A stretch of DNA of 64,000 bases. Origin: Waterburya sp. GTDB lineage: Bacteria > Cyanobacteriota > Cyanobacteriia > Cyanobacteriales > Xenococcaceae. How positions within the stretch are numbered: the stretch's first letter is position 1; each line of letters begins with the position of its first letter. The notes under the pieces are model-generated. The model searched no databases and had not been told where the DNA came from. It was given only the letters and a program-made list of their open reading frames with translations. The stretch spans positions 192,001-256,000 of the forward strand of contig CBDCJV010000002.1 in the NCBI GenBank assembly GCA_965217895.1, in the 5' to 3' direction. Shown in pieces: positions 254 through 15,377 of the stretch. Position numbers and translations under genes: made by a program.

Positions 254-610
254 ACAAGTAGCAGATAACAAGTAGCGCAGCCTGGAGGCTGCCGACGTTG
301 CTCCGCAACGGCCAGACGCGAAGCGCGTCTGCAAGTTCAACCTCTGCCACAGCAAGCAAAGCTTGCAAAGTCGTCGAAGACGACGACATGGAGCGATAGC
401 TCCTGTGTCAGACAAAGGGCTTGCCCGCATGTATTCAAGAGTTGAATTATTTTTTCATCTTTTCCTCATCAATGAAGAGGCTGCATATCCAACTTCGGAG
501 TTTTTCTTAATTGCTATCTGCTATTTGCACACGCTGGAGCGTGTCGCCATCGCGAAGCGATGTCGGCGTTCTCCAGAACGCGCTACTTGCTACTTAACTC
601 CGAAGGAGTT
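254..610. mobile_element. MITE-like insert made of stacked hairpins
   Basis: Interrupts the transposase between YYISSL and TATSWLIPQGIGRHW. Inverted AAGTAGCA ends. Two inverted copies of a three-hairpin module at 275-332 and 527-583. Confidence 0.6.
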
Positions 611-830
611 GGGTAAAGAACTAATATAATAAGTCGCCGAATCCGATTCGTAATCGTGATTACCTCTTGTTCGCGAACGGAAAATTTTGATGATACTATG
701 AACTCCAACCCATTGAGAATCAATGTTTGATGGAGGAGCCAATACTTCTACAGTTCGATGAGTTAGTCGATTTCTTGTCTTCTCGATCTGCTCAAAGCAA
801 CTAATCGCCTTTGTACTTGTTGCTTGAAAT

Positions 831-881
831 TCAACAGCGGAGTGGAATAAGCGCGGGAAACCCACGCATTTCCTCCGCTCA
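831..881 (+). repeat. 48-bp TCA-flanked hairpin element, copy 1
   Basis: TCA-AC-AGCGGAG-TG-GAAT-AA-GCGCGGG-AAA-CCCACGC-ATTT-C-CTCCGC-TCA. Excision restores QIEFQ in the transposase. Confidence 0.85.
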
Positions 882-1333
882 ATTTGTCGATGTAATGTTT
901 TTTGATTTCTTTTGACCACAATTAGGTAGTTATTACCACTGTCGATAATTGCTGAGACTGTTTTTTTTGACAATGTAGAGCATCTATCGTGAACACCACT
1001 CCTTTTAAATGCAGCAATTCTAATAAGTCTTGCACGGCGACAATCTCACTTTGTTTCTTATTTTCCCTAACTTTTATGCCTAAAATTTCCCCGCCTTCAT
1101 GAGTCAAAGCCGAAACCATCATGACGAAGTTTTGCTGTTGTCCATAACAGTCGTTGACAGTATTTTTCAAACTTTTGCCATCAATTGCAATCCATTCACC
1201 TGCTTTTCGCTCATCAGGTATTTGTTTCAAATAGTCAATTAAGCTTTTATCCCAGTCTTTTAAAGTCATTGAGCGGTTAAATTAGGTTTTATATCAATTT
1301 ACCGCACTTTAGCTCTAGAATGAAACAGCCCTA

Positions 1334-1372
1334 CCAGATTTGGGGGGCTAGGGGGCGAGTGCGTAAGTCCTA
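1334..1372. repeat. Right end of a TAGGACTTACGCA-type MITE, cut by the ISAs1 element
   Basis: TTGGGGGGCTAGGGGG..TGCGTAAGTCCTA matches the end of the MITE at 25168-25428. Confidence 0.7.
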
Positions 1373-1429
1373 TTTAAGATTCTTACCTTGCCCGAAACTT
1401 TAACCTAGTTGTAGTTCAAAGATTTAAAA

Positions 1430-3055
1430 TTGGCTAAATACACTTCTCTATTCTCAGAAAAAAAATTCAGCAGATCTCCTCTAAAATTTCTGGTTAGATT
1501 TTCCTCTATCTTCTCAATTGCGATCGCAACTTTGGTGACAGTAGCTGTATTTGAGCGTCCAACCATACCCGCAGAAAGAATTGATTTTAACTATAGTTTG
1601 CTCGGTTTTAAGATCCAGGTCGAAGACCTAGAAGCCTTTGCCAAACATGGAGAAATCAGCAGTAGTCTCAATTTTTATCTTAAGCGTATCTCACCGAAGC
1701 AAACTGAGAGATTACAAAAGCTTCTGCGCCAAAGCTACAATGTTAATCGAGTTTTGGTCTATCGCTATTCCCGTACTACCTCTGGGATTAAAATATTGCA
1801 GCGCATCGGCGAGATTATTCAATTACCTGGAGGCATCAATGGTTTTTATGGTTTGCGGGCTGCGGTGGTACAGAGTGCAGGATCTCCTGACGGGGTTAAC
1901 TTAGTTGATTTTTTAAAACGTTTCCCTACAGACGTTAACCTCAATCTTTCAGAATTACTCAAGCTGGTTAAGCAAGTCTCTAATGCCGAAGATGATACTC
2001 AAGAGTTTATTACCAGCTTAGACGAAGGGAAAACCTCAAAAGCAACTTCAGCAGATTTTAAAAAAGCTCCTAATTTTTCCAAGAAGGGTCAATTTCAAGT
2101 AACTAAACAGACATTAGACTTTTATGACCCTAAACGCGATCGCAATTTAGTTACCGATCTTTATCTACCTAAAAACAGCAAATCTACTCCTGTAATAGTA
2201 GTTTCTAATGGTTTAGGTGCAAAACGCGATCGCTTTCAAGATTTAGCAAATCATTTGGCTTCCTATGGCTTTGCGGTGGTTATTCCCGATCATCCTGGGA
2301 GCGATCGTCAACGACAATTAGACTTTGTTAGAGGTTTATACAAAGAGAATTTTGATGCCACAGAATATACAGATCGTCCCTTGGATATTAGCTATATTTT
2401 AGATGAATTAGAAAAAATCAATCAAAAACAGTTAAATAATAATCTTAATCTGGAACAGGTTGGTATTTTTGGTTATTCTATCGGCGGGACGACGGCTCTT
2501 TCTTTGGCAGGGGCAGAGATTGATTTTCCCCAACTAGAACATGATTGCGCTCAACAACTCGATCTGCTCAATATTTCCGTATTATATCAGTGTCGTGCTT
2601 TGGATATGCCGAGAAAAAAGCAGTCTCTAAAAGATAATCGTATCAAGGCTGCATATATGTTTGTGCCTTTTGGCAATAGTCTTTTTAATAAACAGAAGCT
2701 TAAAGAAATATCAATTCCTGTGATGTGGCAGGTTGTAGATCGAGATTTTTTAACTTCGCTGCTAAATGAACAGGTGCCTTTATTTAAATCTTTGGAAAAT
2801 AGCGATCGGCATTTGGTAATTTCCGAAAGATTACCCCATTCTAATGTCACTTTAGCAAACGAGCAGCGATCTTCGCAAGCAAAGGCTTTTAATGTGGCAA
2901 AAACTTATCAAAACATCCTCTCGTTGGTTTTCTTTGAAAACTACCTTACCCAAGATCGAAAATTTCGCCCTTACTTAAGCGCAGAATATATAAGGGCGAT
3001 CGCTCAAAAACCCTATAGTCTGCATATTTTAGCCAAATCATCAGACAAAAGCTAA
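1430..3055 (+). CDS. DUF1400-containing alpha/beta hydrolase
   Basis: N-terminal AERI..LEAFAKHGEIS domain, SNGLG, DHPGS and GYSIGG nucleophile elbow. Confidence 0.85.
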   Translation: MAKYTSLFSEKKFSRSPLKFLVRFSSIFSIAIATLVTVAVFERPTIPAERIDFNYSLLGFKIQVEDLEAFAKHGEISSSLNFYLKRISPKQTERLQKLLRQSYNVNRVLVYRYSRTTSGIKILQRIGEIIQLPGGINGFYGLRAAVVQSAGSPDGVNLVDFLKRFPTDVNLNLSELLKLVKQVSNAEDDTQEFITSLDEGKTSKATSADFKKAPNFSKKGQFQVTKQTLDFYDPKRDRNLVTDLYLPKNSKSTPVIVVSNGLGAKRDRFQDLANHLASYGFAVVIPDHPGSDRQRQLDFVRGLYKENFDATEYTDRPLDISYILDELEKINQKQLNNNLNLEQVGIFGYSIGGTTALSLAGAEIDFPQLEHDCAQQLDLLNISVLYQCRALDMPRKKQSLKDNRIKAAYMFVPFGNSLFNKQKLKEISIPVMWQVVDRDFLTSLLNEQVPLFKSLENSDRHLVISERLPHSNVTLANEQRSSQAKAFNVAKTYQNILSLVFFENYLTQDRKFRPYLSAEYIRAIAQKPYSLHILAKSSDKS

Positions 3056-3132
3056 AAGTAATTTTTTTATAACATAATCCAAACATCTGCTTAATTTGAG
3101 GTAACTTTGATGAGTTAAGACTACTTTAGAAG

Positions 3133-4524
3133 TTGTTTATGAATCACGGTAGCTATGATGTAGTGGTAATCGGAGGTGGTCCTGCTGGATCGACTTTATC
3201 TACCCTGTTGGTCAAGCAAGGGTACGCGGTTTTGCTGCTAGAAAAAGGAAAATTCCCTCGTTTTCATGTAGGAGAGTCTTTATTACCCGCAACTCAAGCG
3301 ATTTGGCACAAGCTAGGTATTGCTGAATCATTAGAAAATTTAGCACAGAAGAGATATAAAGACAGTGCCGAATTTAGGATTGGACTTTCTCCTCATAGTC
3401 CAGATTATGAGTCTGCAAACATTGACTTTACCAAACCCGAAAACTGGTCGGCAAAAGATTTTCCGAATCATCCTTACGCCTATCAGGTTGAACGTAGTCA
3501 ATTCGATCTCTTGCTGTTAAATCATGCTCGCCAACAAGGAGTGAAGGTGTGCGAATCAGCAACGGTGCGAGAGATTATTTGGTCAGGGGATAAAGCGACT
3601 GGCGTGCGGTGGCGTGACGATGACGGACTTGAGCATCTTACCTCAGCTAAATGTATTGCCGATTGTTCTGGAAGACAAGCATTAATTGCCAAAAGTAAGA
3701 ATCTGCTAGTAGAAGATAAAACTATCAAAACCTCGGCGGTGTTTGGTCACTTTAGCGATGTTACTCCTAACCCTGGAAAAGAACAGGGTGCAATTAGCAT
3801 TTACTTTATTGCTAACGGCTGGATTTGGTTTATTCCCCTGCAGGCAAACAAAATGAGCGTGGGAGTAGTAGTCAACAAACCTGAAAGTGACTGGTGGCAC
3901 AAAAAAAATCCCCAGGATATTCTACTTACCTACATAAACCGCTATAAATTTTTGCAAACTAGATTTGAGTCAGCACAGCAAACCTCAAAAACTCGGCTGT
4001 TAAGCAACCTATCCTATGCTGCCAAGCAAACTGCGGGAGATGGCTGGCTATTGGTAGGGGATGCTAATTTCTTTGTCGATCCTTTTCTTTCTTCGGGGGT
4101 GCAGGTAGCCTTTAAAACTGCCGAAAAAGCGGCGATCGCCATTAACGAATATCTCCAGAATAACAGTAATTTAAAATCTTTCCAAAATTATGCAAAATGG
4201 TGTCAAAGCTATAAATTCCATGTTGTTGTGACCATGCGCTTGATGTATGGCTTGATGAAATATCAGTTTGCAATCCGCACATTTGTTACAGCAGTAAGGA
4301 ACAGTTTAAAGATCAAACCCAATCGATTAGAACGGGGGTTTATTGCCTGGACACTTGGTAACTTTGATCGCCATCATTGGTCACTATACTTTATGTGGCT
4401 TGTCTTTTACACACTTATTGTGGTTGCTAAAATACGCCAGTTTATACTGCGTCAAAATCCTTGGTCAGATTATTCAAAGTTTTGTCCCCTGATTAACAAG
4501 CCCATACCCAAACCTCATTGTTGA
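3133..4524 (+). CDS. FAD-dependent oxidoreductase, flavin-dependent halogenase-like
   Basis: GGGPAGS, FPRFHVGESLLP, WIWFIP (WxWxIP) and GDANFFVDPFLSSGV motifs. Confidence 0.8.
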   Translation: MFMNHGSYDVVVIGGGPAGSTLSTLLVKQGYAVLLLEKGKFPRFHVGESLLPATQAIWHKLGIAESLENLAQKRYKDSAEFRIGLSPHSPDYESANIDFTKPENWSAKDFPNHPYAYQVERSQFDLLLLNHARQQGVKVCESATVREIIWSGDKATGVRWRDDDGLEHLTSAKCIADCSGRQALIAKSKNLLVEDKTIKTSAVFGHFSDVTPNPGKEQGAISIYFIANGWIWFIPLQANKMSVGVVVNKPESDWWHKKNPQDILLTYINRYKFLQTRFESAQQTSKTRLLSNLSYAAKQTAGDGWLLVGDANFFVDPFLSSGVQVAFKTAEKAAIAINEYLQNNSNLKSFQNYAKWCQSYKFHVVVTMRLMYGLMKYQFAIRTFVTAVRNSLKIKPNRLERGFIAWTLGNFDRHHWSLYFMWLVFYTLIVVAKIRQFILRQNPWSDYSKFCPLINKPIPKPHC

Positions 4525-4749
4525 ATAATCGTGTTGTGAAGTTATGCTGTTAAAATTATCGCTACTAGCAAAAAAACCTAACTCTATATTGCGATCGCTT
4601 GTTGTTTTGAAGATCGACTTCAAGAAGTGGCGCATTTATCTGCATCTGTAAATTATTGACCAAATGGATAAATAAAACAAAGCTAATTCACATCAAGTAT
4701 GAGGTATCCTAGCATAGAGAATAAGCCAACCAAACTATGAAGAAAAGCG

Positions 4750-6030
4750 GTGTTAGATCTCAAACTAATTAGAGCCAACCCTCAGCACATTCAAGAATTA
4801 ATTAATCGTCGTAATGGTAGTTATGACATCCAGCCAATTATAAAATTAGATAGTGCTTCAAGGGAGCTAGAAACTAACCGCAGCCAGCTTAGCGCGCGGG
4901 GTAACGAAATTGGCAAACTGATTGGCAAAAAGATTGGTAGCGGTAGCGATCCTCAAGGAAATGAGATAAATCAGCTTAAGGCTGAAGGTAACAACCTAAA
5001 AACCCAGTTAAGTGAATTAGAACCCCAAGAAAGAGAATTAAAAGCCAAGATTGAAGCTCTTTTATTAGAATTACCTAATTTACCTGATGAATCTGTCCCC
5101 GTTGGTAAAAGCGAGGACGATAACGTAGAGATTAAACGCTGGGGCGATGAATATATAGCTAATAGCGAGAATGTATTGCCTCATTGGGAAATAGGCGAAA
5201 AATTAGGCATTTTAGATTTTAAACGGGCAGTGAAAGTAGCCCAGAGTCGCTTTGTTAATTTAGTTGGCGCAGGGGCAGCATTAGAAAGGGCTTTAATTAG
5301 CTTTATGCTGGATATGCAAATTGAAGCCGGTTATATTGAAGTAATGCCTCCTGTATTAATAAATAGTGCTTCTTTACAGGGTACAAGTCAGTTACCAAAG
5401 TTTGCCGAAGATAGCTTTAAATGCACCAACGATGATTTGTGGTTGACTCCTACATCCGAAGTACCTCTTGTTAACCTATATCGAGATGAGGTTTTAGAAG
5501 ATACCGAGTTACCGATCCGCCATTGTGCTTACACTCCTTGTTTTAGAAGAGAAGCAGGCAGTGCAGGTAGAGATAGCAGAGGTTTAATCAGGCTGCATCA
5601 ATTTAATAAAGTAGAGTTGGTTAAAATAGTTGCCCCTGAAACTTCTGATGCCGAACATCAAACTTTAGTAAAGAATGCCGAAGCTATCCTCCAAGCTTTA
5701 AAACTACCTTACCGTATCTTAGAACTCTGCACAGGGGATATTGGTTTTGGGGCTGCAAAATGCTTTGACCTAGAGGTGTGGTTGCCCTCGGCAAAAATGT
5801 ATCGTGAAATCTCTAGCTGTTCTAACTGTAAAGATTTTCAAGCCCGTCGCGCTAATATTCGCTTTAAACAAGCAGGTAAAAAAGGAACACAGTATGTTCA
5901 TACCCTTAATGGTTCGGGCTTAGCAATTGGACGCACTATGGCAGCAGTACTAGAAAATTATCAGCAGCCTGATGGCACAGTTAGAATACCTGATGTGCTG
6001 CAACCATATTTAAAGAGAGAAATTTTGTAG
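4750..6030 (+). CDS. serS: Serine--tRNA ligase
   Basis: MLDLKLIR start, coiled-coil arm, [21 protein letters not shown] and [12 protein letters not shown]. Confidence 0.97.
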
Positions 6031-6039
6031 ATATTTATT

Positions 6040-6160
6040 TGTGGGCGAAAGAAAAGTGGGCGAAAAGCCCTTCGGGTTCGACATCGGAAAGCATTCCCTT
6101 GCGCCTTCGGACGACGCGGGGTCTCGACCCACCGCAACTGTCTCACCTTTCGCCCCTACA
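6040..6160. repeat. Nested palindromic repeat cluster between convergent serS and thyX
   Basis: GGGCGAA..TTCGCCCCTACA shell (compare 29991-30020). It contains a GGGTTC..CAACTGTCTCACC element, itself interrupted by an inverted GACCCCGCGTC..CAAGGGAATGC element (6091-6123). Confidence 0.7.
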
Positions 6161-6174
6161 GTTATTAACTAACG

Positions 6175-6638
6175 TTATTTCTGTGCGTGAATTGTCCAGG
6201 CTGCCATTGAGACTGGGACAATTGGTTCAATTAACTCAATGATCGCACTGGCATAAGCTCCAATTTCGCTTTGCGCCCCTTTTCCTAAGCGTAAGCCAAT
6301 AAAATTCAAAAGAGCCTGTAAACTGACTGTCCAGACCCAAGACGTATAAACAGAAGGAACTAAAACCCCTCTAGCCTGCTCTCTACCTACGCCCAACTCT
6401 AAAAGCTCAGAATACGCCTGATAGCTATTTTCGCATTGTTCTTGGTATAGGTTGATCGCTTTTTGATTAACTTGGGGCTCTAAACTCCCAAGAGTCGCCT
6501 GTTTATTATTTTTTGACTGCTGCCTAAAGGTAAGAGGAATATAAAATTCGTTACTGTCATCAATTGATACATAGCGAAAACTTTTCTCATTCCAGCCAAG
6601 TTGCTCCTCATTGTGATTACTAGCTATGACGTGCTTCC
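6175..6638 (-). CDS. thyX: Flavin-dependent thymidylate synthase ThyX, exon 2
   Basis: Open frame (W)KHVIASNHNEEQLGWNEKSFRY...GVGREQARGVL...LRLGKGAQSEI. Joined to exon 1 it gives a 717-nt, 238-aa ORF. Confidence 0.93.
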
Positions 6639-7514
6639 CAGTTGTGTTACAAGTAACCCGATGCCGATTACTTTCTTACAGTTTCCTGCAAGCTCAGACT
6701 ATATCATAATCCTTCTATTACAGTTAGGATTCTCCGCGCTTCGAGTTCTCTTAAACCCTACTCCCCAATGGGATAGTCGTTGCGCCTTCCGATGGACTAT
6801 CGGCTTGGCTCAGGATTGCCATATTTTCTGCTTTGTCAACAGACAAACTGTAGGTGTCCCCTGAATTCACGGAGTACGCATCTAGAATTTCTTCTAAATG
6901 GGGCATTGTGTATTTTTCAGTAAGTATGTCAAATTGGATAATTCCCGCTTGTACTAACTGCATAGATATTGACTCTAGCCGATCATGAATTTCTCTATGA
7001 TGACCATTGCTTTGACAAATATAAAGATTGTTAGGCTGATTATTTAGTTTGTCTCCGTCAATGTGGTGAACTCTCTCATGTTTAGTAAGAGGACTACCTT
7101 TTTGAAGTTCTGCGACTAAACGGTGAATTAGACAATACTTGTCTTTTCTACTTGTGTAGTTATGCCCGCGACCCAAATAAACTTCTTTATATCTACTGCT
7201 ATTTATGTATGCTTTACCTATCTCAATCCTGTGCCTAGGTTTTACATTTCCTTTATTCCAAGCAGGTCTACCTTTATTTGCTTTGCCTATAGATCTATTC
7301 TTACAAGTTTTACAGGGGTGTATGTCTGATTCTCGAATCTTTTTAGAATAATTAACAACACGCTCATTCAGACAAATTTCACATCGGAGTTTTACTCGTC
7401 TAGTGTATCTGTATTTACGCTTTGCACCCAAACCCCTTAGAGTTCTTGCATTCTCCAAGATTTCGATGAGCATATTTACACCGTCATACGACACTTACCA
7501 ATCTTACACAGTTT
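6639..7514 (-). mobile_element. Group I intron (IA-like, with P7.1/P7.2) in thyX, carrying an HNH endonuclease ORF
   Basis: Exon 1 ends in U and the intron ends in G. Core elements: P GTGAATTCAGGGGA, Q GGCAATCCTGAGCCAAG, R GGCGCAACGACTA, S GATATAGTC. P3 CTCCGTG/CGCGGAG, P7 GACTA/TAGTC, P9 CTTGCAG-GAAA-CTGTAAG. IGS at 7482-7492 pairs with the end of exon 1. Confidence 0.93.
6751..7494 (-). CDS. Intron-encoded HNH homing endonuclease (start GTG 7494 or ATG 7473)
   Basis: CxxC..CxxC, a KGRPAWNKG (NUMOD3-like) motif and HRLVAE..VHHIDGDKLNNQPNNL..H HNH motif. Confidence 0.85.
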   Translation of the reverse strand: MSYDGVNMLIEILENARTLRGLGAKRKYRYTRRVKLRCEICLNERVVNYSKKIRESDIHPCKTCKNRSIGKANKGRPAWNKGNVKPRHRIEIGKAYINSSRYKEVYLGRGHNYTSRKDKYCLIHRLVAELQKGSPLTKHERVHHIDGDKLNNQPNNLYICQSNGHHREIHDRLESISMQLVQAGIIQFDILTEKYTMPHLEEILDAYSVNSGDTYSLSVDKAENMAILSQADSPSEGATTIPLGSRV

Positions 7515-7767
7515 ACCATTGACGACATACATACAAAGGAGCTTTTACTTTAAATTTAAATACAACTCCACGAAAAGGGCTAGTATGTTCATGTTTGATT
7601 AAATAGTTGATTAGTTTAATATCTTTTTCACCAAGCTTATTAGAAGTCTTTTCAAAAGATGCTCTGGCATCATTCACTATACTTAAATCATTTCCCATAG
7701 AATCAATTAATTCAATTCTACTTTTGCCGTCATTTAAAGGATCTCTTGATATTAGAGTATTGTCCAT
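7515..7767 (-). CDS. thyX: Flavin-dependent thymidylate synthase ThyX, exon 1
   Basis: DPLNDGKS..MGNDLSIVNDARASF..HTSPFRGVVFKFKVKAPLYVCRQW. Lies directly downstream of dcd. Confidence 0.93.
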
Positions 7768-7823
7768 AATTAAACTATTTGTATATATTTGCTTTTTTCA
7801 ATCTAGATTACTTTAGTTCGTAA

Positions 7824-8426
7824 TCAAACCTTCGGTAAGGTAACGCCAGAACCTTGATTTTGATATTTACCGCCTCGATCTGCGTAGGTGGTTTCGCAAG
7901 ACTCCCCCTCGAAAAATAATAACTGCACCACGCCCTCATTAGCGTAAATTTTTACATCCGCACTAGAAGCATTACTAAATTCTAAAGTTATACTTTCTCC
8001 CTGCCAAGAAGCCTCTAAGGGAGTCGTATTCGCTATCACACCAACACGAGCATAAGTAGATTTGCCAAGACAGATAGCGGTCACGTTGGCAGGCATTTTA
8101 ATACTTTCTAAGGATGCTCCTAAACCGTAACTATTTGCAGGGATAATAAAGTAGGATGAGCCATCATCATCATTGTGTAACTCTGCCTGTTCCAAGTTTT
8201 TGGGATTAAACTTTTTGGGATCGATAACAGTTCCTGGAATATGGCGAAATATCCGAAAATCGTGAGGAGACAGACGGATATCGTAGCCATAAGAACTTAA
8301 ACCCCAACTGATAGTAGATACTGCTTTTTCTGCACCCAAAACTGCTTTTCTGATTGATTTTTTCTCAAAAGGAGAAATCATACCTTGACAGGCTTGCTCG
8401 ATAATCCACTTATCATTTTTAATCAT
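7824..8426 (-). CDS. dcd: dCTP deaminase
   Basis: GLSSYGYDIRL, GKSTYARVG, YANEGVVQLLF and YADRGGKYQNQ. Confidence 0.95.
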   Translation of the reverse strand: MIKNDKWIIEQACQGMISPFEKKSIRKAVLGAEKAVSTISWGLSSYGYDIRLSPHDFRIFRHIPGTVIDPKKFNPKNLEQAELHNDDDGSSYFIIPANSYGLGASLESIKMPANVTAICLGKSTYARVGVIANTTPLEASWQGESITLEFSNASSADVKIYANEGVVQLLFFEGESCETTYADRGGKYQNQGSGVTLPKV

Positions 8427-8742
8427 CTTTGAGATACTGTTGCCAACCCTGACTATTTGTAAGCAGAGAGTATCTTAACAAGCAAAACGTTAATCTTAAT
8501 CTTTATTTTTTCTGAGGGATAAGGCGATCGCATAGCTAGATTAGGCATCGCCTTTGATGATTAGCTTGTAAATACTTCGTCTAACCCGACAACATCAAAT
8601 CTTCCCCTGACAACCTTTGAGGCGAACTAAGTGCTTCTACATCTTTGCCTAAACGGTAAATTTCTACTCTTTTCTCATCAGGGTGAATCAGCCAACCTAG
8701 TTTGACACCACATTCTTGATATTCTTTAATAGAGAAATTAAT

Positions 8743-8872
8743 ATAGCGATTCTCAAATCAATAAGATACATTAGCTAAGTTCTGAAAAAAAGTGCAAAAC
8801 CTTTCCCCCTTTTACCTTTTCCCTTTAACTAGACACAACTAAGGTGTATCTCGTAAATAAGAGAAACGCTAT
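8743..8872. repeat. MITE-like inverted-repeat element
   Basis: ATAGCGATTCTC..AGATACA / TGTATCT..GAGAAACGCTAT inverted ends around CCTTTT(C/A) heptamer repeats. Confidence 0.55.
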
Positions 8873-8912
8873 ATTATTCGAGTGTTAATAATTTTGTTAG
8901 CTAAAAATTGTT

Positions 8913-10574
8913 CTAAAAAGAAAAAACCGTTCGTAGAGTCCCAGAGACAATTGTGCCATTACTATCCTGGTTGGCAGCATTAGTAATTACTTGAACTAAA
9001 GGTGTGATGCGAATATTGTCATTGACGGGAAAATTGTAGAATGCCTCAATGTTAGTTTGAGTAGCGTTACCAATCTTATCAGCAATAAAAGGTTGACCGA
9101 CAGCAACACCACTAATCGCACCAGACATAAACAAATCAGGAAAAGCGATTCCCACTATCCAGTAACTTGGATTAATATCCCCAAAGTCTGTATTGTTATA
9201 GCTGCCATAGCCGTAACGTCCAAAAACAGCAATTCGCTCTGAAATTGCCCACTCAAAGTTAGCTCCCACAACATCAAAGCGATCGCCCAATATTTCTCCG
9301 CCAGTGTACTGAAAACGCATGGTAAAATTATTAACAGGAGTGAATTCTACTTCAACTGCACCCTGATAGGGGTCGCCAAATAGCCCACCCTCGCTTTCAC
9401 CGTCGGGATAAAGAATATACCCGATGGGAAAAATACCAGGAACAAAAGACGAATTATCTGAGTTCGGTTCATTTGCCAATGCAGCTACATAAGCAGCTTT
9501 TACTCTAATACTTTCAACTGGATTCCAATCAATTACAGCACCCGCACCTAAACCTTGAATGGGAAAAAGAATGTAATTCTGTGATAATGACAGGGTGGAA
9601 AAGTTCAAAAAGCTAGGATTAATATAACTATTAGTATCTACATAATCAGTCAAACTAAGAGTAGAACCAAAGGTTAAATTAAGCTTATCAGACGGAGAAA
9701 AAGTATAGTAAAGACGAGAGATACCAAACTCTTCTACAGGTGGTTTTGCCGAGTAGTCTAGAACACTACCGAAAGTGGGTTCTAGAAAACCACCTGTATT
9801 ATCATCAATTCCATCGCTACCAATTTCTAGCCAGGTTACTAAAGAATCAGTACCATTAAAACTCGTATTGAGTTCCAAAGTAGTTCGATAAATTAGGGTG
9901 GCATTAGGATCGTCTGTGGTAATTTCTTCACCCGTTACATCAATAATGCGATCGCCCTCAAAGCCCCCTGCTGTTGCCCCTAAAACAACTAATGTTGTCA
10001 GTTTAGTAGTAGTAGAAAATTGATGGCGAGGCACGCTGCTTCGCAAGCAGCTTGTGCAATCGCCATGTTGATTTTCTTCTAAAAAAGCAGTTCGTTTTTC
10101 TAATTTGTCAACACGACTTTCTAAAGTAACTAGCTCGGCTTCAAATTCTTGTCTCAATCTTTGTAAGGTAGCTAAATCGTTACTAGATATTGATGTTTTC
10201 TCTTGAGCTATTAATTGCTCAACTTGTTTAAGCACCTTGTTTAAAGCTACTGCAAATTCATAGCGAGTTAGAGAGCGATCGCCTTTGAATGTATTATCTG
10301 GGTAGCCCGTGATTATACCGTAACGCTTAATTAAAAGCTGAAGTGCTTCATAAGCCCAGTCTGTTGGCTGAACATCTGAAAGTTTGCTCACAGGTGTAAC
10401 TTGCCCGACTAAAGCAGATACAGGCTCTTGAGAAATAACCTCTGGAACAGCTTGAGCAGGATAACTCTGAGTAATTAAAACTAGAAAGCTTAAACTATTA
10501 ACAAAATACAAATTGCAGAAAGAACACTGTAATTTCATTTGACTTAGACAGAGTTCGCTAATAAATGTTTTCAA
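8913..10574 (-). CDS. SLH-domain OprB-type outer-membrane porin
   Basis: SDVQPTDWAYEAL..GYPDNTF..TRYEFA SLH domain, coiled coil, FSTTTKL and C-terminal LRTVFSF. Confidence 0.92.
   Translation of the reverse strand: MKTFISELCLSQMKLQCSFCNLYFVNSLSFLVLITQSYPAQAVPEVISQEPVSALVGQVTPVSKLSDVQPTDWAYEALQLLIKRYGIITGYPDNTFKGDRSLTRYEFAVALNKVLKQVEQLIAQEKTSISSNDLATLQRLRQEFEAELVTLESRVDKLEKRTAFLEENQHGDCTSCLRSSVPRHQFSTTTKLTTLVVLGATAGGFEGDRIIDVTGEEITTDDPNATLIYRTTLELNTSFNGTDSLVTWLEIGSDGIDDNTGGFLEPTFGSVLDYSAKPPVEEFGISRLYYTFSPSDKLNLTFGSTLSLTDYVDTNSYINPSFLNFSTLSLSQNYILFPIQGLGAGAVIDWNPVESIRVKAAYVAALANEPNSDNSSFVPGIFPIGYILYPDGESEGGLFGDPYQGAVEVEFTPVNNFTMRFQYTGGEILGDRFDVVGANFEWAISERIAVFGRYGYGSYNNTDFGDINPSYWIVGIAFPDLFMSGAISGVAVGQPFIADKIGNATQTNIEAFYNFPVNDNIRITPLVQVITNAANQDSNGTIVSGTLRTVFSF
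10021..10071 (-). repeat. 48-bp TCA-flanked hairpin element, copy 2 (in frame in porin)
   Basis: TCA-AC-ATGGCGA-TT-GCAC-AA-GCTGCTT-GCG-AAGCAGC-GTGC-C-TCGCCA-TCA. Excision restores LEENQFSTTTKL. Confidence 0.88.
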
Positions 10575-10590
10575 TTATTTCTGTAATGAA

Positions 10591-11754
10591 TTAATGCCTT
10601 GATTTGATGAGAAAGGCAGAAAAAGCGATGAGCGATAGTAAAAGTCCGACAGTACAAACCCCACTCCATTGCCAGACTTTCCAGCCATAAGCACCGAGAA
10701 AAGAGCCGACTGCACCGCCGACAAAATAAAATGTGATAAATAGTGCATTCAAACGGCTGTGTTTCTCTTCGGGTAACTTGTAGAGCAATGCTTGATTAGA
10801 CACCGTTGTTACCTGAACTCCCAAATCCAATAAGATTACCCCAACAATTAGTCCCCATAAGTGATATCCAAACAACCAAAACACCAAAAAAGATACAGTT
10901 GTTGTAATCAAGCCCAATGCTATAGCGAGTCTGGGATTTCTGCGGTCGGCAAGTTTGCCAGCTAGCGGTGCTGCTGCTGCTCCTACTACTCCAATTAAAC
11001 CGAATAGCCCCGCTACCTCACTGCCATATTGGTAAGGTGGCTGCTCTAAGAGAAATATCAAAGTACTCCAAAAGACGCTAAATGCTCCAAAAGCCATCGC
11101 TCCTGCAATCGAGGCTTCTTGTAATACGGGTTCTCGCAGCAATTTCAACATGGAGCGAATTAATTGCTGGTAATTCAAGATGACCGCTGGCTGACTTTTG
11201 GGCAGAATTTTCAACACGGCGATCGCCAAGACTAGCATAACTCCACTAGCAATCCAATATATTGCCCGCCAGCCCAACTCTACACCTACAAAACCACTTA
11301 CGGTACGAGATAGAAGAATGCCAATAAGCAGTCCACTCATTACAGTACCTACTACCTTACCTCGGACGGATGGAGGAGCTAGCACAGCAGCAAAAGGAAC
11401 GGCGATTTGAGGTACGATTGTGGTTATTCCAATAATAAAGCTGGCAATTACTAACCAGGAGATCGTTGGAGAAACGGCTGCGGTAGCTAACGCTAGCGAA
11501 GTTCCAATTAACATGGTGACAATCAACCGCCTTCGCTCTAGAAGATCGCCAAGAGGGACGATTAAAAAGTTTCCTAGCGCATAACCAATTTGACCTAATG
11601 TTGGAATTAATCCTGTGTCTTGGGCGGAGGCATTAAGGCTTTTAGCGATCGCTGCGAGTAGAGGCTGATTGTAATATAAATTGGCAGCAGTAGCCCCGCT
11701 AGTAATTGCCATCAACCAGACAATTTTGCGATCTATAACAATGTTGCGATTCAT
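10591..11754 (-). CDS. MFS transporter
   Basis: About 12 hydrophobic segments, ANLYYNQPLL and PLGDLLERRR motif A. Confidence 0.9.
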   Translation of the reverse strand: MNRNIVIDRKIVWLMAITSGATAANLYYNQPLLAAIAKSLNASAQDTGLIPTLGQIGYALGNFLIVPLGDLLERRRLIVTMLIGTSLALATAAVSPTISWLVIASFIIGITTIVPQIAVPFAAVLAPPSVRGKVVGTVMSGLLIGILLSRTVSGFVGVELGWRAIYWIASGVMLVLAIAVLKILPKSQPAVILNYQQLIRSMLKLLREPVLQEASIAGAMAFGAFSVFWSTLIFLLEQPPYQYGSEVAGLFGLIGVVGAAAAPLAGKLADRRNPRLAIALGLITTTVSFLVFWLFGYHLWGLIVGVILLDLGVQVTTVSNQALLYKLPEEKHSRLNALFITFYFVGGAVGSFLGAYGWKVWQWSGVCTVGLLLSLIAFSAFLIKSRH

Positions 11755-11840
11755 AATAATTGGATTGGAAGCATAAAGGTTGAATCATTACAGGTAATGT
11801 AAAACTCAGCCGAAGCCTGCAAAGTTGAGGTGCAAAAGTA

Positions 11841-12485
11841 TTAACCTTTTCTATCAGTCTTGCTGTAGCTAGGCTGCCAAGTTTCTATAACTTGCAGTAT
11901 CGCTTTACGAGCTTGGGCTAGAGACTTTTGACGGGCTGACTCTCCCATCGCTAGATTCTCTGCATGGATAAAAGTAATATTTGTAACGCCAATAAGTTCA
12001 AAAATAGCCCTCAAGTATGGTTCTTGAAAATCAAGGGGGCTACCTTCGTAGCTACCGCCTCTAGTTGTAATTACTAAGATTTTTTTAGAGTCTTTAACTA
12101 AACCTTGATAGCTATTGGATGTTACGGCAAAGGTGCGTCCTACCCTAATAATCTGATCGATGTAAGCTTTGAAGTTAGCAGGAATACTGTAGTTATACAT
12201 GGGAATACCAAACACGCAGACTCGTGCAGCTAAAAACTCATCAATTAATTTGTCAGAAATTTCTATTGCCGACTTCAATTCTGGTGTTAGTTGTTCGGCA
12301 GAATTAAATGCTGCTGCAATCCATAATTCATCGACAAAAGGAACGGGATTATGTCCCAAATCACGATAAGTAATTTTGTCTTCAGGATAGGTTTCCTGCC
12401 AAATACGATTGAACTCATTAGTCAAGGCACGAGATAGAGAGCGATCGCCTCTTGGACTAGAATCAAGATGAAGTATGCAAGTCAT
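11841..12485 (-). CDS. azoR: FMN-dependent NADH-azoreductase
   Basis: LDSSPRGDRSLSR, PMYNYSIPANFKAYID and TRGGSY. Confidence 0.88.
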   Translation of the reverse strand: MTCILHLDSSPRGDRSLSRALTNEFNRIWQETYPEDKITYRDLGHNPVPFVDELWIAAAFNSAEQLTPELKSAIEISDKLIDEFLAARVCVFGIPMYNYSIPANFKAYIDQIIRVGRTFAVTSNSYQGLVKDSKKILVITTRGGSYEGSPLDFQEPYLRAIFELIGVTNITFIHAENLAMGESARQKSLAQARKAILQVIETWQPSYSKTDRKG

Positions 12486-12601
12486 TGATTAATGTGTCTT
12501 ATCGACTTTATAAAAATTTGTCTTTATAAAATCAATTATTATGAGTTTGAATCAATGCTGTCTTGCACAATCTCTCAATTTTCAGCACATTCTTATAGAA
12601 C

Positions 12602-13510
12602 TTATTGAAGTAGGCGAAACTGTTTGGGAGTTACACCAACTAACCGTTTAAAATGACGGCTGAGATGGCTTTGATGAGAAAACCCAAGTCTCAAGGCAAT
12701 GTCTGCGATCGTCAGATCGTTTTCTAGTAGTAATTGCTTGGCACGCTCTATGCGACACTGAATCACATACTGATGGGGTGGAATTCCAACTGCTTGTTTA
12801 AATAAAATAGAAAAATAGCTTGGACTTATCTGTACCAGTGTTGCTAATTCAGCTAAAGCTAAGTCTCGATCAAGATGCTGATAAATGTAGTCAATTACTT
12901 GTTGTAACTTCCGCTTTGACAAAGGATTTAAATCGTTTTGAGAACGGTGCTTTTGGTTTGAATAGTGCCGTACCAAGTGAGTCATTAAAACAGCAATTAG
13001 TGAATCGATGTAAAGACGGCTACCAAAGCCACTAGATTGCAGTTCCGATTTAAGTGCTAACCCGACACTGTGAATCAATGGGTCAGACTTACTAAAACAG
13101 GGGATAAATTCAATATCAGCTACATCAACCAGATCAAAACTTTGACGAGCCAATATACTAGGCTCAAAACTTAGAGTAATAAATTGATACTTTCTGTCCC
13201 AATACGCAGAGTTAAGTACATCATTTGGTACGAAAGTGATACTTGCATTGCCAAGCTGACTATTGTGCAAACGATGCTCGATCATTTCCTCAATTATTAA
13301 AGACGAAGGACTATGATCGTGAATAATAAGGCGATGCTGCTTGGAATAATTGCTAGAAAGTTTATGAGGAGGATGACAATGATAATGTAGCTGAATTCCA
13401 TTCCATCCTATTGGCTGGCTAGAGAGCAGAGGTAACTGCGGATAAAGCTGAAGAACATCATCCTCTTCAGCAAAATCGACTATTAAAGTTTTCTTTTCTA
13501 GCATCGCCAC
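12602..13510 (-). CDS. AraC-family transcriptional regulator
   Basis: C-terminal double HTH ending GFSHQSHLSRHFKRLVGVTPKQFR. Confidence 0.92.
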   Translation of the reverse strand: MAMLEKKTLIVDFAEEDDVLQLYPQLPLLSSQPIGWNGIQLHYHCHPPHKLSSNYSKQHRLIIHDHSPSSLIIEEMIEHRLHNSQLGNASITFVPNDVLNSAYWDRKYQFITLSFEPSILARQSFDLVDVADIEFIPCFSKSDPLIHSVGLALKSELQSSGFGSRLYIDSLIAVLMTHLVRHYSNQKHRSQNDLNPLSKRKLQQVIDYIYQHLDRDLALAELATLVQISPSYFSILFKQAVGIPPHQYVIQCRIERAKQLLLENDLTIADIALRLGFSHQSHLSRHFKRLVGVTPKQFRLLQ

Positions 13511-13582
13511 AATTTCTCTGAGAATATTTTTAGATAGTATAGTATGCAGCTATTTTAGATTTTATAAGTATTATCAATCGAG

Positions 13583-14150
13583 TCAATGCTTATCGGCATG
13601 AATTCCGATATTAATAAGTAAAATATTGCTAATGGTCAAAATTGCCCAAAACCCAAACAGGGTATTAATCGTACCCAGATTTTCAGATAAAAAGCCGATC
13701 GCCACTACGGGTAAACCATAGCCAAGATAAGCACAGACAAAATAACCCGATGTCACTCTCGCCGACTGCGAACCGCCTACTTTTACTACTTGAGCCAATC
13801 CACCCAAATAAGTAAATCCATAACAAGCCGTTCCTGCGATCGCCACTCCTGCTATTACTAAAGCCAAAACATTAAGCCACGCCCCACAGGTAAAGCTAAG
13901 ATAGCCAATAACCAGTAAAACAGAGCCTAGTTTTAGCGATCGCCTCTCCTCTAACTTACGAGCAAAGGATTGAAGCAAAACCCCAGAAATCACAAAGATA
14001 AACAACATCACACCCGACCAATTGGGCAAACCGTATTGTTGTAACTGTTGTGGCAGAATGATGCCGACAATTCTCGCTAAAGACCAAGCTAAGGCGATCG
14101 CTAATTCCACCTAGTAGAATCAAAGTTGGTAATAAACCTGCGATATAGGT
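13583..14150 (-). pseudogene. MFS transporter pseudogene (5' end cut at IS982; internal deletion at a HIP1 site)
   Basis: YIAGLLPTLILLGGISDR (TM2/motif A) joins out of frame at GCGATCGC 14094-14101 to the C-terminal half (AIALAWS..YLGYGLPV). Confidence 0.7.
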
Positions 14151-14273
14151 AACCTGAGTTCGGGTTAAGCAGATTGAGGCAAAAGCCAATCAAGGCGGAG
14201 ACTAGGCTTTTTAGGTTGATGACAATAAGCGATTAATCCACAAAGAACATTAACGCAAAAATTTACTGGCGAT

Positions 14274-14294
14274 GCCTTCGGCTAGCTTCGCAAT
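14274..14294. repeat. 21-bp insert in a HIP1-like site (SDR5-like)
   Basis: Excision restores GCGATCGA and the peptide HSRHRSP. The insert supplies an in-frame TAG. Confidence 0.75.
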
Positions 14295-14625
14295 CGATGG
14301 CGAGAATGTTTGATTTGAGAAATATTTTTGAGTTGGTCATTAATTGTCTCAATAATTGATCGGTGGCGGGATAGAAGTTTGTCATGAAGTCGCATTAATT
14401 TATTCTTCATATTACGTCTGGGTTTAGCAAAAAACTGAATCCCAAACTCTTCGAGCAATTGATTAGCAAGCTTTTGGGAGACATAGCCTCTGTCTGCAAA
14501 AAATTTACCAAAAAGACCTTGAAGCAAGTCAGGAATAGGACGACGATCATCAAAGTTTCCAGGAGTAAGTTGAGCATTTAACAGTTGACCGATCTCGTTG
14601 ACTACTAAGTGGAGCTTAAAACCAT

Positions 14626-14673
14626 CTTGGTGCGCGTTCCCATGCTGGGGAAACCCCAGCGGGGTCGCACCGC
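14626..14673. repeat. 48-bp hairpin insert of a different family in IS982 transposase
   Basis: GGTGCG..CCC..GCTGGGG-AAA-CCCCAGC-GGG..CGCACC. Excision restores DWFYGFKLH. Confidence 0.75.
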
Positions 14674-14747
14674 AAAACCAATCAACCGAAGTTTTACCTC
14701 TTTGAGCTAAACCATCAAAAACTTTGTGGCGTTTAATTCGGCGATTG

Positions 14748-14798
14748 TGACGGTGGGGTATGCTGGGGTTTCCCCAGCTTATACAACCACCGTGTTGA
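14748..14798 (-). repeat. 48-bp TCA-flanked hairpin element, copy 3
   Basis: TCA-AC-ACGGTGG-TT-GTAT-AA-GCTGGGG-AAA-CCCCAGC-ATAC-C-CCACCG-TCA. Excision restores KVCHNRRI. Confidence 0.88.
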
Positions 14799-15377
14799 CA
14801 AACTTTGAGACTAGTAGCATCAACAAAACCAATCCCTGTACAGTTTCCAAAACAACGTTTGAGGTAGACACACAACGGAATTAAAGTTGAAGGAGTCCAT
14901 TCCACAAATCTTTGATAGCTAGGAAGTCCTGGAAAAGCCAAATGCCAATGCTGTTTTACATAGTCAAGATAAAAGTGTTTAAAATTGCGATAGTGATTTT
15001 GATGAAACGCAATTAAAATCGTCATTATTTCACTCAAACAGAGGTTTTTCGCTCTGCGTCTTTTTATTCCGCCATGACTTAGCAACTTCTTTTGCCATTC
15101 AGGTTCAAAAACAAGACAAAAATCGTCTACATCACAAAATAAAGCATCTAAACTAAACATAGGGCAGGTTTACTGAAGAAAGTTGTTATTTTCAGCTTAC
15201 TACCTGTCCTTTTTCTTATCCCGAACTCAGGTTAAGTAATAAAATAAGATGAGGTCTAAAAGGTTGGGTTTTTTCTACCGTCAGAAAGGTGCAAAGATCC
15301 AAAGCTTAATTCTAAGATGAGATTATCCACAGCTTGAATTTTAATTCAAGTCAACAAAGAATGAGGGATAATTAATT

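Follow-up and report, generated by a model that had tools for sequence, protein, structure and literature searches.

The stretch analysed here, referred to as the window, comprises 64,000 nucleotides of a Waterburya genome (G000:C2:192001-256000, where G000 denotes the window genome) and carries three copies of a 48-base, non-coding, mobile element, which has inserted directly 3' of the tetranucleotide N-T-C-A without duplicating it. An initial annotation had reported three 51-mers with defined stems, which have all been recovered in place, and had overlooked a different 48-bp hairpin insert at 14626-14673. The copies, their targets and their hosts are:

834..881, plus strand: copy 1 of the 48-bp element (AC...CA), antisense in a DDE transposase open reading frame (ORF; 590-973, minus); passenger on a 7-copy insertion sequence (IS)
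830..833, plus strand: target tetranucleotide of copy 1, TTCA; base -4 stands opposite element base 4 as a G-T wobble
836..837, plus strand: putative guide dinucleotide of copy 1 (element bases 3-4), assigned from the covariation rule
10021..10068, minus strand: copy 2, sense and in frame in an SLH/OprB porin gene
10069..10072, minus strand: target tetranucleotide of copy 2, ATCA; -3/-4 complementary to element bases 3-4 (10066-10065)
14748..14795, minus strand: copy 3, sense and in frame in a DDE_Tnp_1_3 transposase gene; passenger on a 4-copy IS family
14796..14799, minus strand: target tetranucleotide of copy 3, GTCA; the insert is followed by C, which the empty paralogues also have
14626..14673, plus strand: fourth insert, a sister 48-bp hairpin; boundaries +-1-2 nt
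8913..10574, minus strand: host gene, SLH + OprB porin
14282..15160, minus strand: host gene, DDE transposase with two 16-aa inserts, presumably of IS982 type
590..1269, minus strand: host, DDE transposase in two ORFs, which we take to be of ISAs1 type; Pfam match below cut-off and on ORF 922-1269 only

The proposal of 48-bp inserts has been borne out by empty counterparts, which exist as orthologues, paralogues or contigs for all three window copies. Copy 2 is missing from 10/10 porin paralogues, and its 16 residues are missing from 3/3 full-length porin orthologues (G022, G008, G055), while copy 3 (14748) is missing from 3 distant transposase paralogues. For copy 1, a 48-base skip at 830/879, whose intervening letters are not known, is seen in contigs from one sample; its IS (590-1269) has been assembled in 7 copies, every one of them filled. 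The elements had been described as TCA-flanked, and TCA indeed stands at both sides, but this does not reflect a duplicated target: only the left NTCA stems from the target, the right one being part of the element. Element base 4 pairs with base 45 at 122/126 sites, and the flank matches at only 87. At 7 of 13 sites of the window genome with empty paralogues, the left tetranucleotide differs from the element end, and at 7/7 of these informative sites the differing base in the paralogues, some of them distant, agrees with the left version. A target duplication has been ruled out by these flank mismatches and empty paralogues. The base following the insert is target-derived as well and, since nothing is duplicated, the insertion cut is placed either between C and A or directly after CA.

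The element folds into a single hairpin of 7 bp, a bulged T, 4-5 bp, an AW bulge, 6-7 bp and a short loop, with ends AC...NTCA. The closing T still belongs to the lower stem, as its last base, where it covaries with base 3 (A-T in 129 and G-C in 17 of 147 elements); the element ends are consequently AC...CA. The window copies, which share pairwise 19, 29 and 32 of 48 bases, have folded better than 200/200 shuffles (z -3.3, -4.5, -5.7), and each is predicted to form a dumbbell with a 4-nt lower loop CAAC when circularised. Covariation has been assessed in 59 sequences, namely the 3 window copies and 56/58 cyanobacterial loci, taken without a pairing filter and with two duplicates omitted. Pairing has been observed in 92.8% of 1,062 cells, compared with 63.6% after shuffling and 36-47% with slid partners, and double changes number 299 versus 85 and occur in 16/18 pairs, so that the stems compensate despite their change of sequence, as had been claimed. 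Among 147 distinct elements, the mean identity is 57%, 52 lower-stem sequences occur, and no pair varies or covaries more than the foot pair 4:45. The fixed positions are AC and CA at the start and the end, the bulged T, a single C, and the AW bulge together with the G-C pair above. Seven top hairpins occur in both orientations, and lasting non-standard pairs are either pyrimidine-pyrimidine or one G-T (conserved in 31/147). Persistent mismatches are nearly all T-C or C-T, with purine mismatches being rare, a bias that may reflect repair of the folded strand. Rfam has returned no match for the three window copies at E<=5.

Beyond the window, descriptor and covariance scans have found dozens of further copies in the window genome, where the family counts about 50-80. 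Among 4,326 TCA..TCA 51-mers, 34 have at least 15/18 stem pairs, and at positions that had not been scored these 34 show AC in 34/34 and the loop T, bulge A and 3' C in 33/34 each. A looser descriptor has given 83 matches (55 distinct cores) versus 6 in an order-3 Markov copy of the chromosome, and a covariance model 81 matches at E<=0.01 among 150 scored candidates. The strict AC...CA descriptor has returned 47 copies at only 25 independent sites, and thus many copies are IS passengers. Plain BLAST, which had been expected to miss the family, has not found all copies but does find close subtypes (11 own-genome matches). Three elements are each present letter for letter at two unrelated sites, that of copy 2 having its twin at C2:1386405, which we take as a sign of recent movement. 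A single repeated target site has been seen to hold different element variants across genomes (G000:C2:629133, 2682405, 5104746; L005, L010, L024, L042, L059, L178), which suggests independent repeated insertion or replacement in place.

The choice of target follows the element. The target consensus is N-T-C-A/A-W, the slash marking the insertion, with A at +1 in 127/141 independent sites. Target base -4 is Watson-Crick complementary to element base 4 at 95/141 sites, compared with 37.4+-5.1 after shuffling (0/5000), a significance somewhat inflated by element kinship and guarded by resampling and a held-out set. Target base -3 is complementary to element base 3 at 111/141 sites (97.5+-2.6 shuffled), and complementarity at -5 and -6 stays at chance level. 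With one site per lower-stem type, the -4 match has a mean of 36/55 versus 15, and 15 later-added sites have given 8 versus 3.8 (75/5000 shuffles). From metagenome contigs, 80 of 120 stretches being listed, 84 matches, 64 of them folding, have contributed 45 new sites; among the matches listed, these held-out sites have given a -4 match at 28/45 versus 12.1+-2.9 (0/5000) and no signal at -5 to -7. The target also follows unusual element bases: C at -3 has been found at 8/13 sites with G as element base 3 versus 14/113 others (p=1.9e-4), and where element base 4 is G, a T at -4 is tolerated in 11/44 sites. Nothing comparable has been seen in flank-element covariation beyond -3/-4. The covariation is what we observe; we infer from it that element bases 3-4 likely read target bases -3/-4 by base pairing. 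The earlier idea of recognition by shape has therefore been kept in part: the shape is conserved, but it is insufficient alone, because element bases 3-4 predict the target. In our judgement, it is highly probable that the hairpin is mobile and that its choice of target depends on the element itself.

Beyond its genus, the family has been rare in the cyanobacteria searched. A pattern free of pairing constraints has matched 22/24 genomes of the same genus, with at most one control match, and in 300 order-wide genomes it has matched 15/17 of the own family, 5/18 of another family and only a few of the rest, with chance matches among them. Carriers named among the matches listed (80 of 109 stretches) are Pleurocapsa, Waterburya, Xenococcus, Hyella, Spirulina and Lusitaniella, and a plasmid of Stanieria cyanosphaera PCC 7437 has a further copy inside an annotated gene. 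Among the matches listed, at least 15/18 pairs form in 55/58 cyanobacterial records and at most 12 in 21/22 non-cyanobacterial ones, so that the latter, 21/22 of which do not fold, have been rejected as members. Likewise, all 14 viral pattern matches have 7-11/18 pairs, and phage copies have been set aside as chance. In 150 genomes of the phylum, the covariance model has given one relative and one weak match and no credible match in 148. Copy numbers in individual genomes are 64 (G020), 22 (G006), 12 (G021) and 0 (G002 and G303).

Of 126 sites, 56 fall within ORFs of at least 120 aa, 3 are spanned by a short ORF only, and 67 by no ORF of 90 aa. The 56 in-gene inserts comprise 34 in sense and 22 in antisense, in line with the earlier statement that both orientations occur. 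The reading frame stays open in 47/56 (84%), against ~70% expected by chance, which points to mild selection beside length, and 9/56 introduce a stop. Accordingly, the addition of exactly 16 codons, which had been noted for each of the three inserts, follows from the 48-bp length plus mild selection and is not a rule.

The 48-base hairpin has relatives that share its core. Within one subtype, 60 of 105 distinct contexts are without AC...CA ends, and sister forms of 42, 51, 48 and apparently 45 nt net have been found in tandem repeats, HIP1-associated repeats and other hairpin repeats. The 51-nt form may be the only sister to fit the -3/-4 rule. The insert at 14626-14673 has the upper module of the main family, differs in its lower loop (3-nt/1-nt) and ends, and gives 16 extra aa to the transposase that also hosts copy 3. 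Its sister family also lies at G000:C2:~487590-487640, and both inserts are carried by three near-identical IS copies. The form of +45 nt net seemingly replaces two target bases in three unrelated host repeats, and some elements have other inserts (18, 24, 48 and about 105 nt) nested inside them:

G000:C2:669286, 521598, 3812905; L176, L337-L358: sister form of +45 nt net
G000:C2:1290445-1290610, 2271432-2271530, 1027661-1027735, 4501319-4501387: elements with nested inserts

Regarding the mechanism, we give a probability of about one half to a movement of the folded single DNA strand, with the target chosen by pairing of element bases 3-4 with -3/-4 and an HUH (Y1)-type transposase acting in trans. 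A protein would bind the bulged stem on exposed single-stranded DNA and cut at or directly after CA at both ends, which would release a 48-nt dumbbell circle with CAAC as its lower loop. The target strand would displace the last two stem bases and then pair with element bases 3-4, and strand transfer at CA would insert the circle. As only the shape would be read, the stem sequence could drift, and the variable foot pair would retarget the element. A DNA form is favoured over RNA because insertions occur in sense and antisense (34:22) and the seven top hairpins in both orientations. According to passages in PMC5934647 and PMC3201880, an internal guide of IS608 reads a tetranucleotide, the first two guide bases meeting -4/-3, and insertion takes place 3' of that tetranucleotide. 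For transposases of repetitive extragenic palindromic (REP) sequences, bulge dependence of one group (group 2) and CA cleavage by one group-3 enzyme are given in a passage of PMC8266576. The IS608-like insertion pattern, together with this bulge dependence and CA cutting, is the reason for favouring an HUH-type route. Since the guide geometry differs, the element is better said to work like IS608 than to be of its kind.

Several observations weigh against this mechanism. The -4 base is mismatched at about one third of sites, pairing of base 4 and homology to base 45 are not separable with only 4 discordant sites, base 6 does not suit a fourth guide position (T in 28% only), and most same-core sister families disobey the -3/-4 rule. 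The copies lie on mixed strands with no visible replichore bias, GC skew being uninformative, and show a weak sense excess (p=0.03, 46% sense expected). The enzyme, moreover, has not come to light: no autonomous version with matching ends within 4 kb has been found in the window genome, no enzyme gene recurs beside the 126 sites, 72 candidate-enzyme loci hold only 4 single copies, no IS200-type TnpA match has been returned for G000 and G020, and the REP-type HUH genes of these two genomes adjoin REPs of the GTAG type.

A cognate TnpA with the same ends has likewise not been found in the fetched loci and the window genome. The Pfam search of the latter has returned one REP-associated tyrosine transposase (RAYT), frameshifted, and 8/61 family genomes, among them G020 with its 64 copies, have no Pfam Y1 match. 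A motif scan has nevertheless revealed REP-type HUH genes with the motifs of subclass 2.4, an intact one of 184 aa in G000 and a relative of 195 aa in G020; the notion of high-copy genomes without a Y1 enzyme has been dropped, as the Pfam genome search misses RAYTs like those of this subclass. It has also missed tandem REP-type HUH genes, one intact and one split, at G000:C2:3519192-3521277 (L393), which surround a two-gene module whose second ORF resembles by eye a PemK/MazF-type toxin. Genes for IS110, TnpB, reverse transcriptase (RT) and tyrosine recombinase are present, the last two having been searched in G000 only. HUH/RAYT, IS110 and RT genes, which the initial annotation had proposed to look for, are thus present in this genome, but none is tied to the element. 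Copy number is tracked neither by the IS110 family NF051857 nor by TnpB. Two divergent IS110-family genes share a common ~200-bp upstream stretch (L032 ~130-345; L033 ~3010-2810, minus), which ends in what we take by eye to be a hammerhead-core-like motif; Rfam has given nothing at E<=0.05 in 5 loci of that type.

A further reading, which we put forward tentatively, is that the element founds a class of ~40-50-nt self-guided hairpins, in which one stem serves as shape tag and naturally reprogrammed guide and the enzyme stands outside IS200/RAYT, IS110 and RT; it would also explain the small dispersed repeats (SDRs) of cyanobacteria. Rather unlikely, in our view, is a microhomology copy-in, whereby host replication or repair, through template switching or a transfer like that of type IA topoisomerases, copies the hairpin or circle into NTCAA-identical sites while a host protein holds the fold. 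In its favour, the 5-nt target consensus N-T-C-A-A is the same as the circle junction, the data agree equally well with identity to base 45 and with pairing to base 4, and no dedicated enzyme has been found; template switching would also be in keeping with the invertible top hairpins and with double changes that show few intermediates. The signal, however, ends abruptly at -5, where plain homology should fade gradually, the fixed bulges and length imply a specific reader, and the family is restricted to one lineage.

An RNA intermediate appears improbable; here a transcript of the hairpin, excised or made circular, would be reverse-transcribed at sites able to pair with its end. The 8 RT matches in G000, the conserved G-T pair (31/147), which suits RNA as well as single-stranded DNA, and the slight sense bias speak for it, and an RNA route has reportedly been suggested for SDRs. 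Antisense inserts are nevertheless common (22/56), loop sequence and orientation are free, Rfam has no match, and target-primed copying predicts a target-derived right NTCA, whereas the right NTCA follows the element. A shared CA core without duplication is the usual product of two-base-core recombinases, and integration at such a core by an IS110 family enzyme, or by a tyrosine recombinase on folded strands as at integron attC, would account for the junctions. Cyanobacterial IS110 genes exceed the cut-off in 18/61 family genomes, including G000, G020 and G023, and one copy lies ~400 bp from a tyrosine recombinase gene. This route is decidedly doubtful all the same: the IS110 family has not been found in G006 (22 copies) and G021 (12) and is present in G002 and G303 (0 copies), the variable stems offer a bridge RNA no fixed donor sequence, and the element-encoded -4 rule is left unexplained. 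That the hairpin is not mobile, being a regulatory RNA, a terminator-like motif or a chance palindrome, would suit its stability and the many copies merely carried by IS (47 copies, 25 sites), but is refuted by the existence of empty beside filled alleles and is further opposed by the three cases of identical elements at unrelated sites, the mid-gene positions on both strands and the 83 versus 6 simulated matches.

Among known systems, SDRs, to which the initial annotation had already pointed, are closest. SDR1-8 of Nostocaceae, ascribed to Elhai and colleagues (2008, Genome Res 18:1484), are reportedly about 20-27 nt long, and SDR4-6 are said to have compensatory structure. The likeness has been strengthened by the precise dispersed insertion, with filled and empty sites, and the compensatory changes in 16/18 pairs. 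Both are cyanobacterial, non-coding, very small and precisely inserted, with no known enzyme; the present element differs in its 48 nt (sisters 42-51) compared with about 20-27 and in its host range, which is of Xenococcaceae/Pleurocapsales type and excludes most other families searched. The contexts and the 42-51-nt sisters place the 48-base hairpin with the Nostoc SDRs. The SDRs of Nostocaceae are treated in PMC5861425, PMC4390886, PMC2884548 and PMC3116915, where passages share with this family, here mostly with its sisters, the settings in tandem repeats and HIP1 sites and the mutual nesting; one such passage speaks of 'some 20 bp' (PMC2884548). As far as these passages go, the near-random NTCA target and the element-encoded targeting rule are differences.

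With the IS200/IS605 elements IS608 and ISDra2, as described in parts of the above sources, the hairpin shares a strand-specific bulged hairpin, insertion 3' of a retained tetranucleotide without duplication, an own tetranucleotide at the right end, and the reading of -4/-3 by two element bases. It differs in that one hairpin instead of two subterminal ones makes up the whole 48-base element, the stem sequence is free and no tnpA/tnpB or cognate partner has been found; that its guide lies inside the stem and is not a four-base stretch 5' of each hairpin also counts against the proposed HUH-type movement. The REP/RAYT systems share dispersed hairpins of 20-50 nt and such an HUH gene in G000 and G020, and in-frame REP insertions are noted for subclass 2.4 in a passage of PMC6006769. 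The present element, in contrast, has no GTAG/GTGG foot (its start being AC-A-N), occurs as single units and not as dimers, and does not flank the RAYT genes of G000 and G020, which have other REPs. Rickettsia palindromic elements and miniature inverted-repeat transposable elements (MITEs; Nezha, MaeMITE) are likewise non-autonomous hairpins, some in frame in genes, as given in portions of PMC3733652 and PMC3184786; the 48-base hairpin is much shorter and has neither conserved terminal inverted repeats nor a target duplication. None of the cyanobacterial REPs and MITEs in those portions has its form. In the literature searched, no description of the 48-bp family or of its -3/-4 rule has been found, although supplements could hold repeat catalogues.

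Elsewhere in the window, a group I intron (Rfam RF00028, 6675-6935) with an HNH endonuclease ORF lies at ~6640-7640 on the minus strand; it apparently splits a ThyX-like gene (Thy1 match just below cut-off), and contigs skip 1,003 bases there.

For the question of how bacterial repeats below 50 nt move, which dates back to the description of the SDRs, this family gives a quantitative handle: as its fold and ends are defined and two bases predict where it lands, candidate enzymes become testable with oligonucleotides and a guide swap, and Stanieria cyanosphaera PCC 7437 offers a cultured carrier. The element would rank among the smallest mobile elements that bear their own targeting information, with a natural retargeting of the kind so far engineered in IS608, and the family supplies 16-residue loops to proteins in one cyanobacterial lineage.

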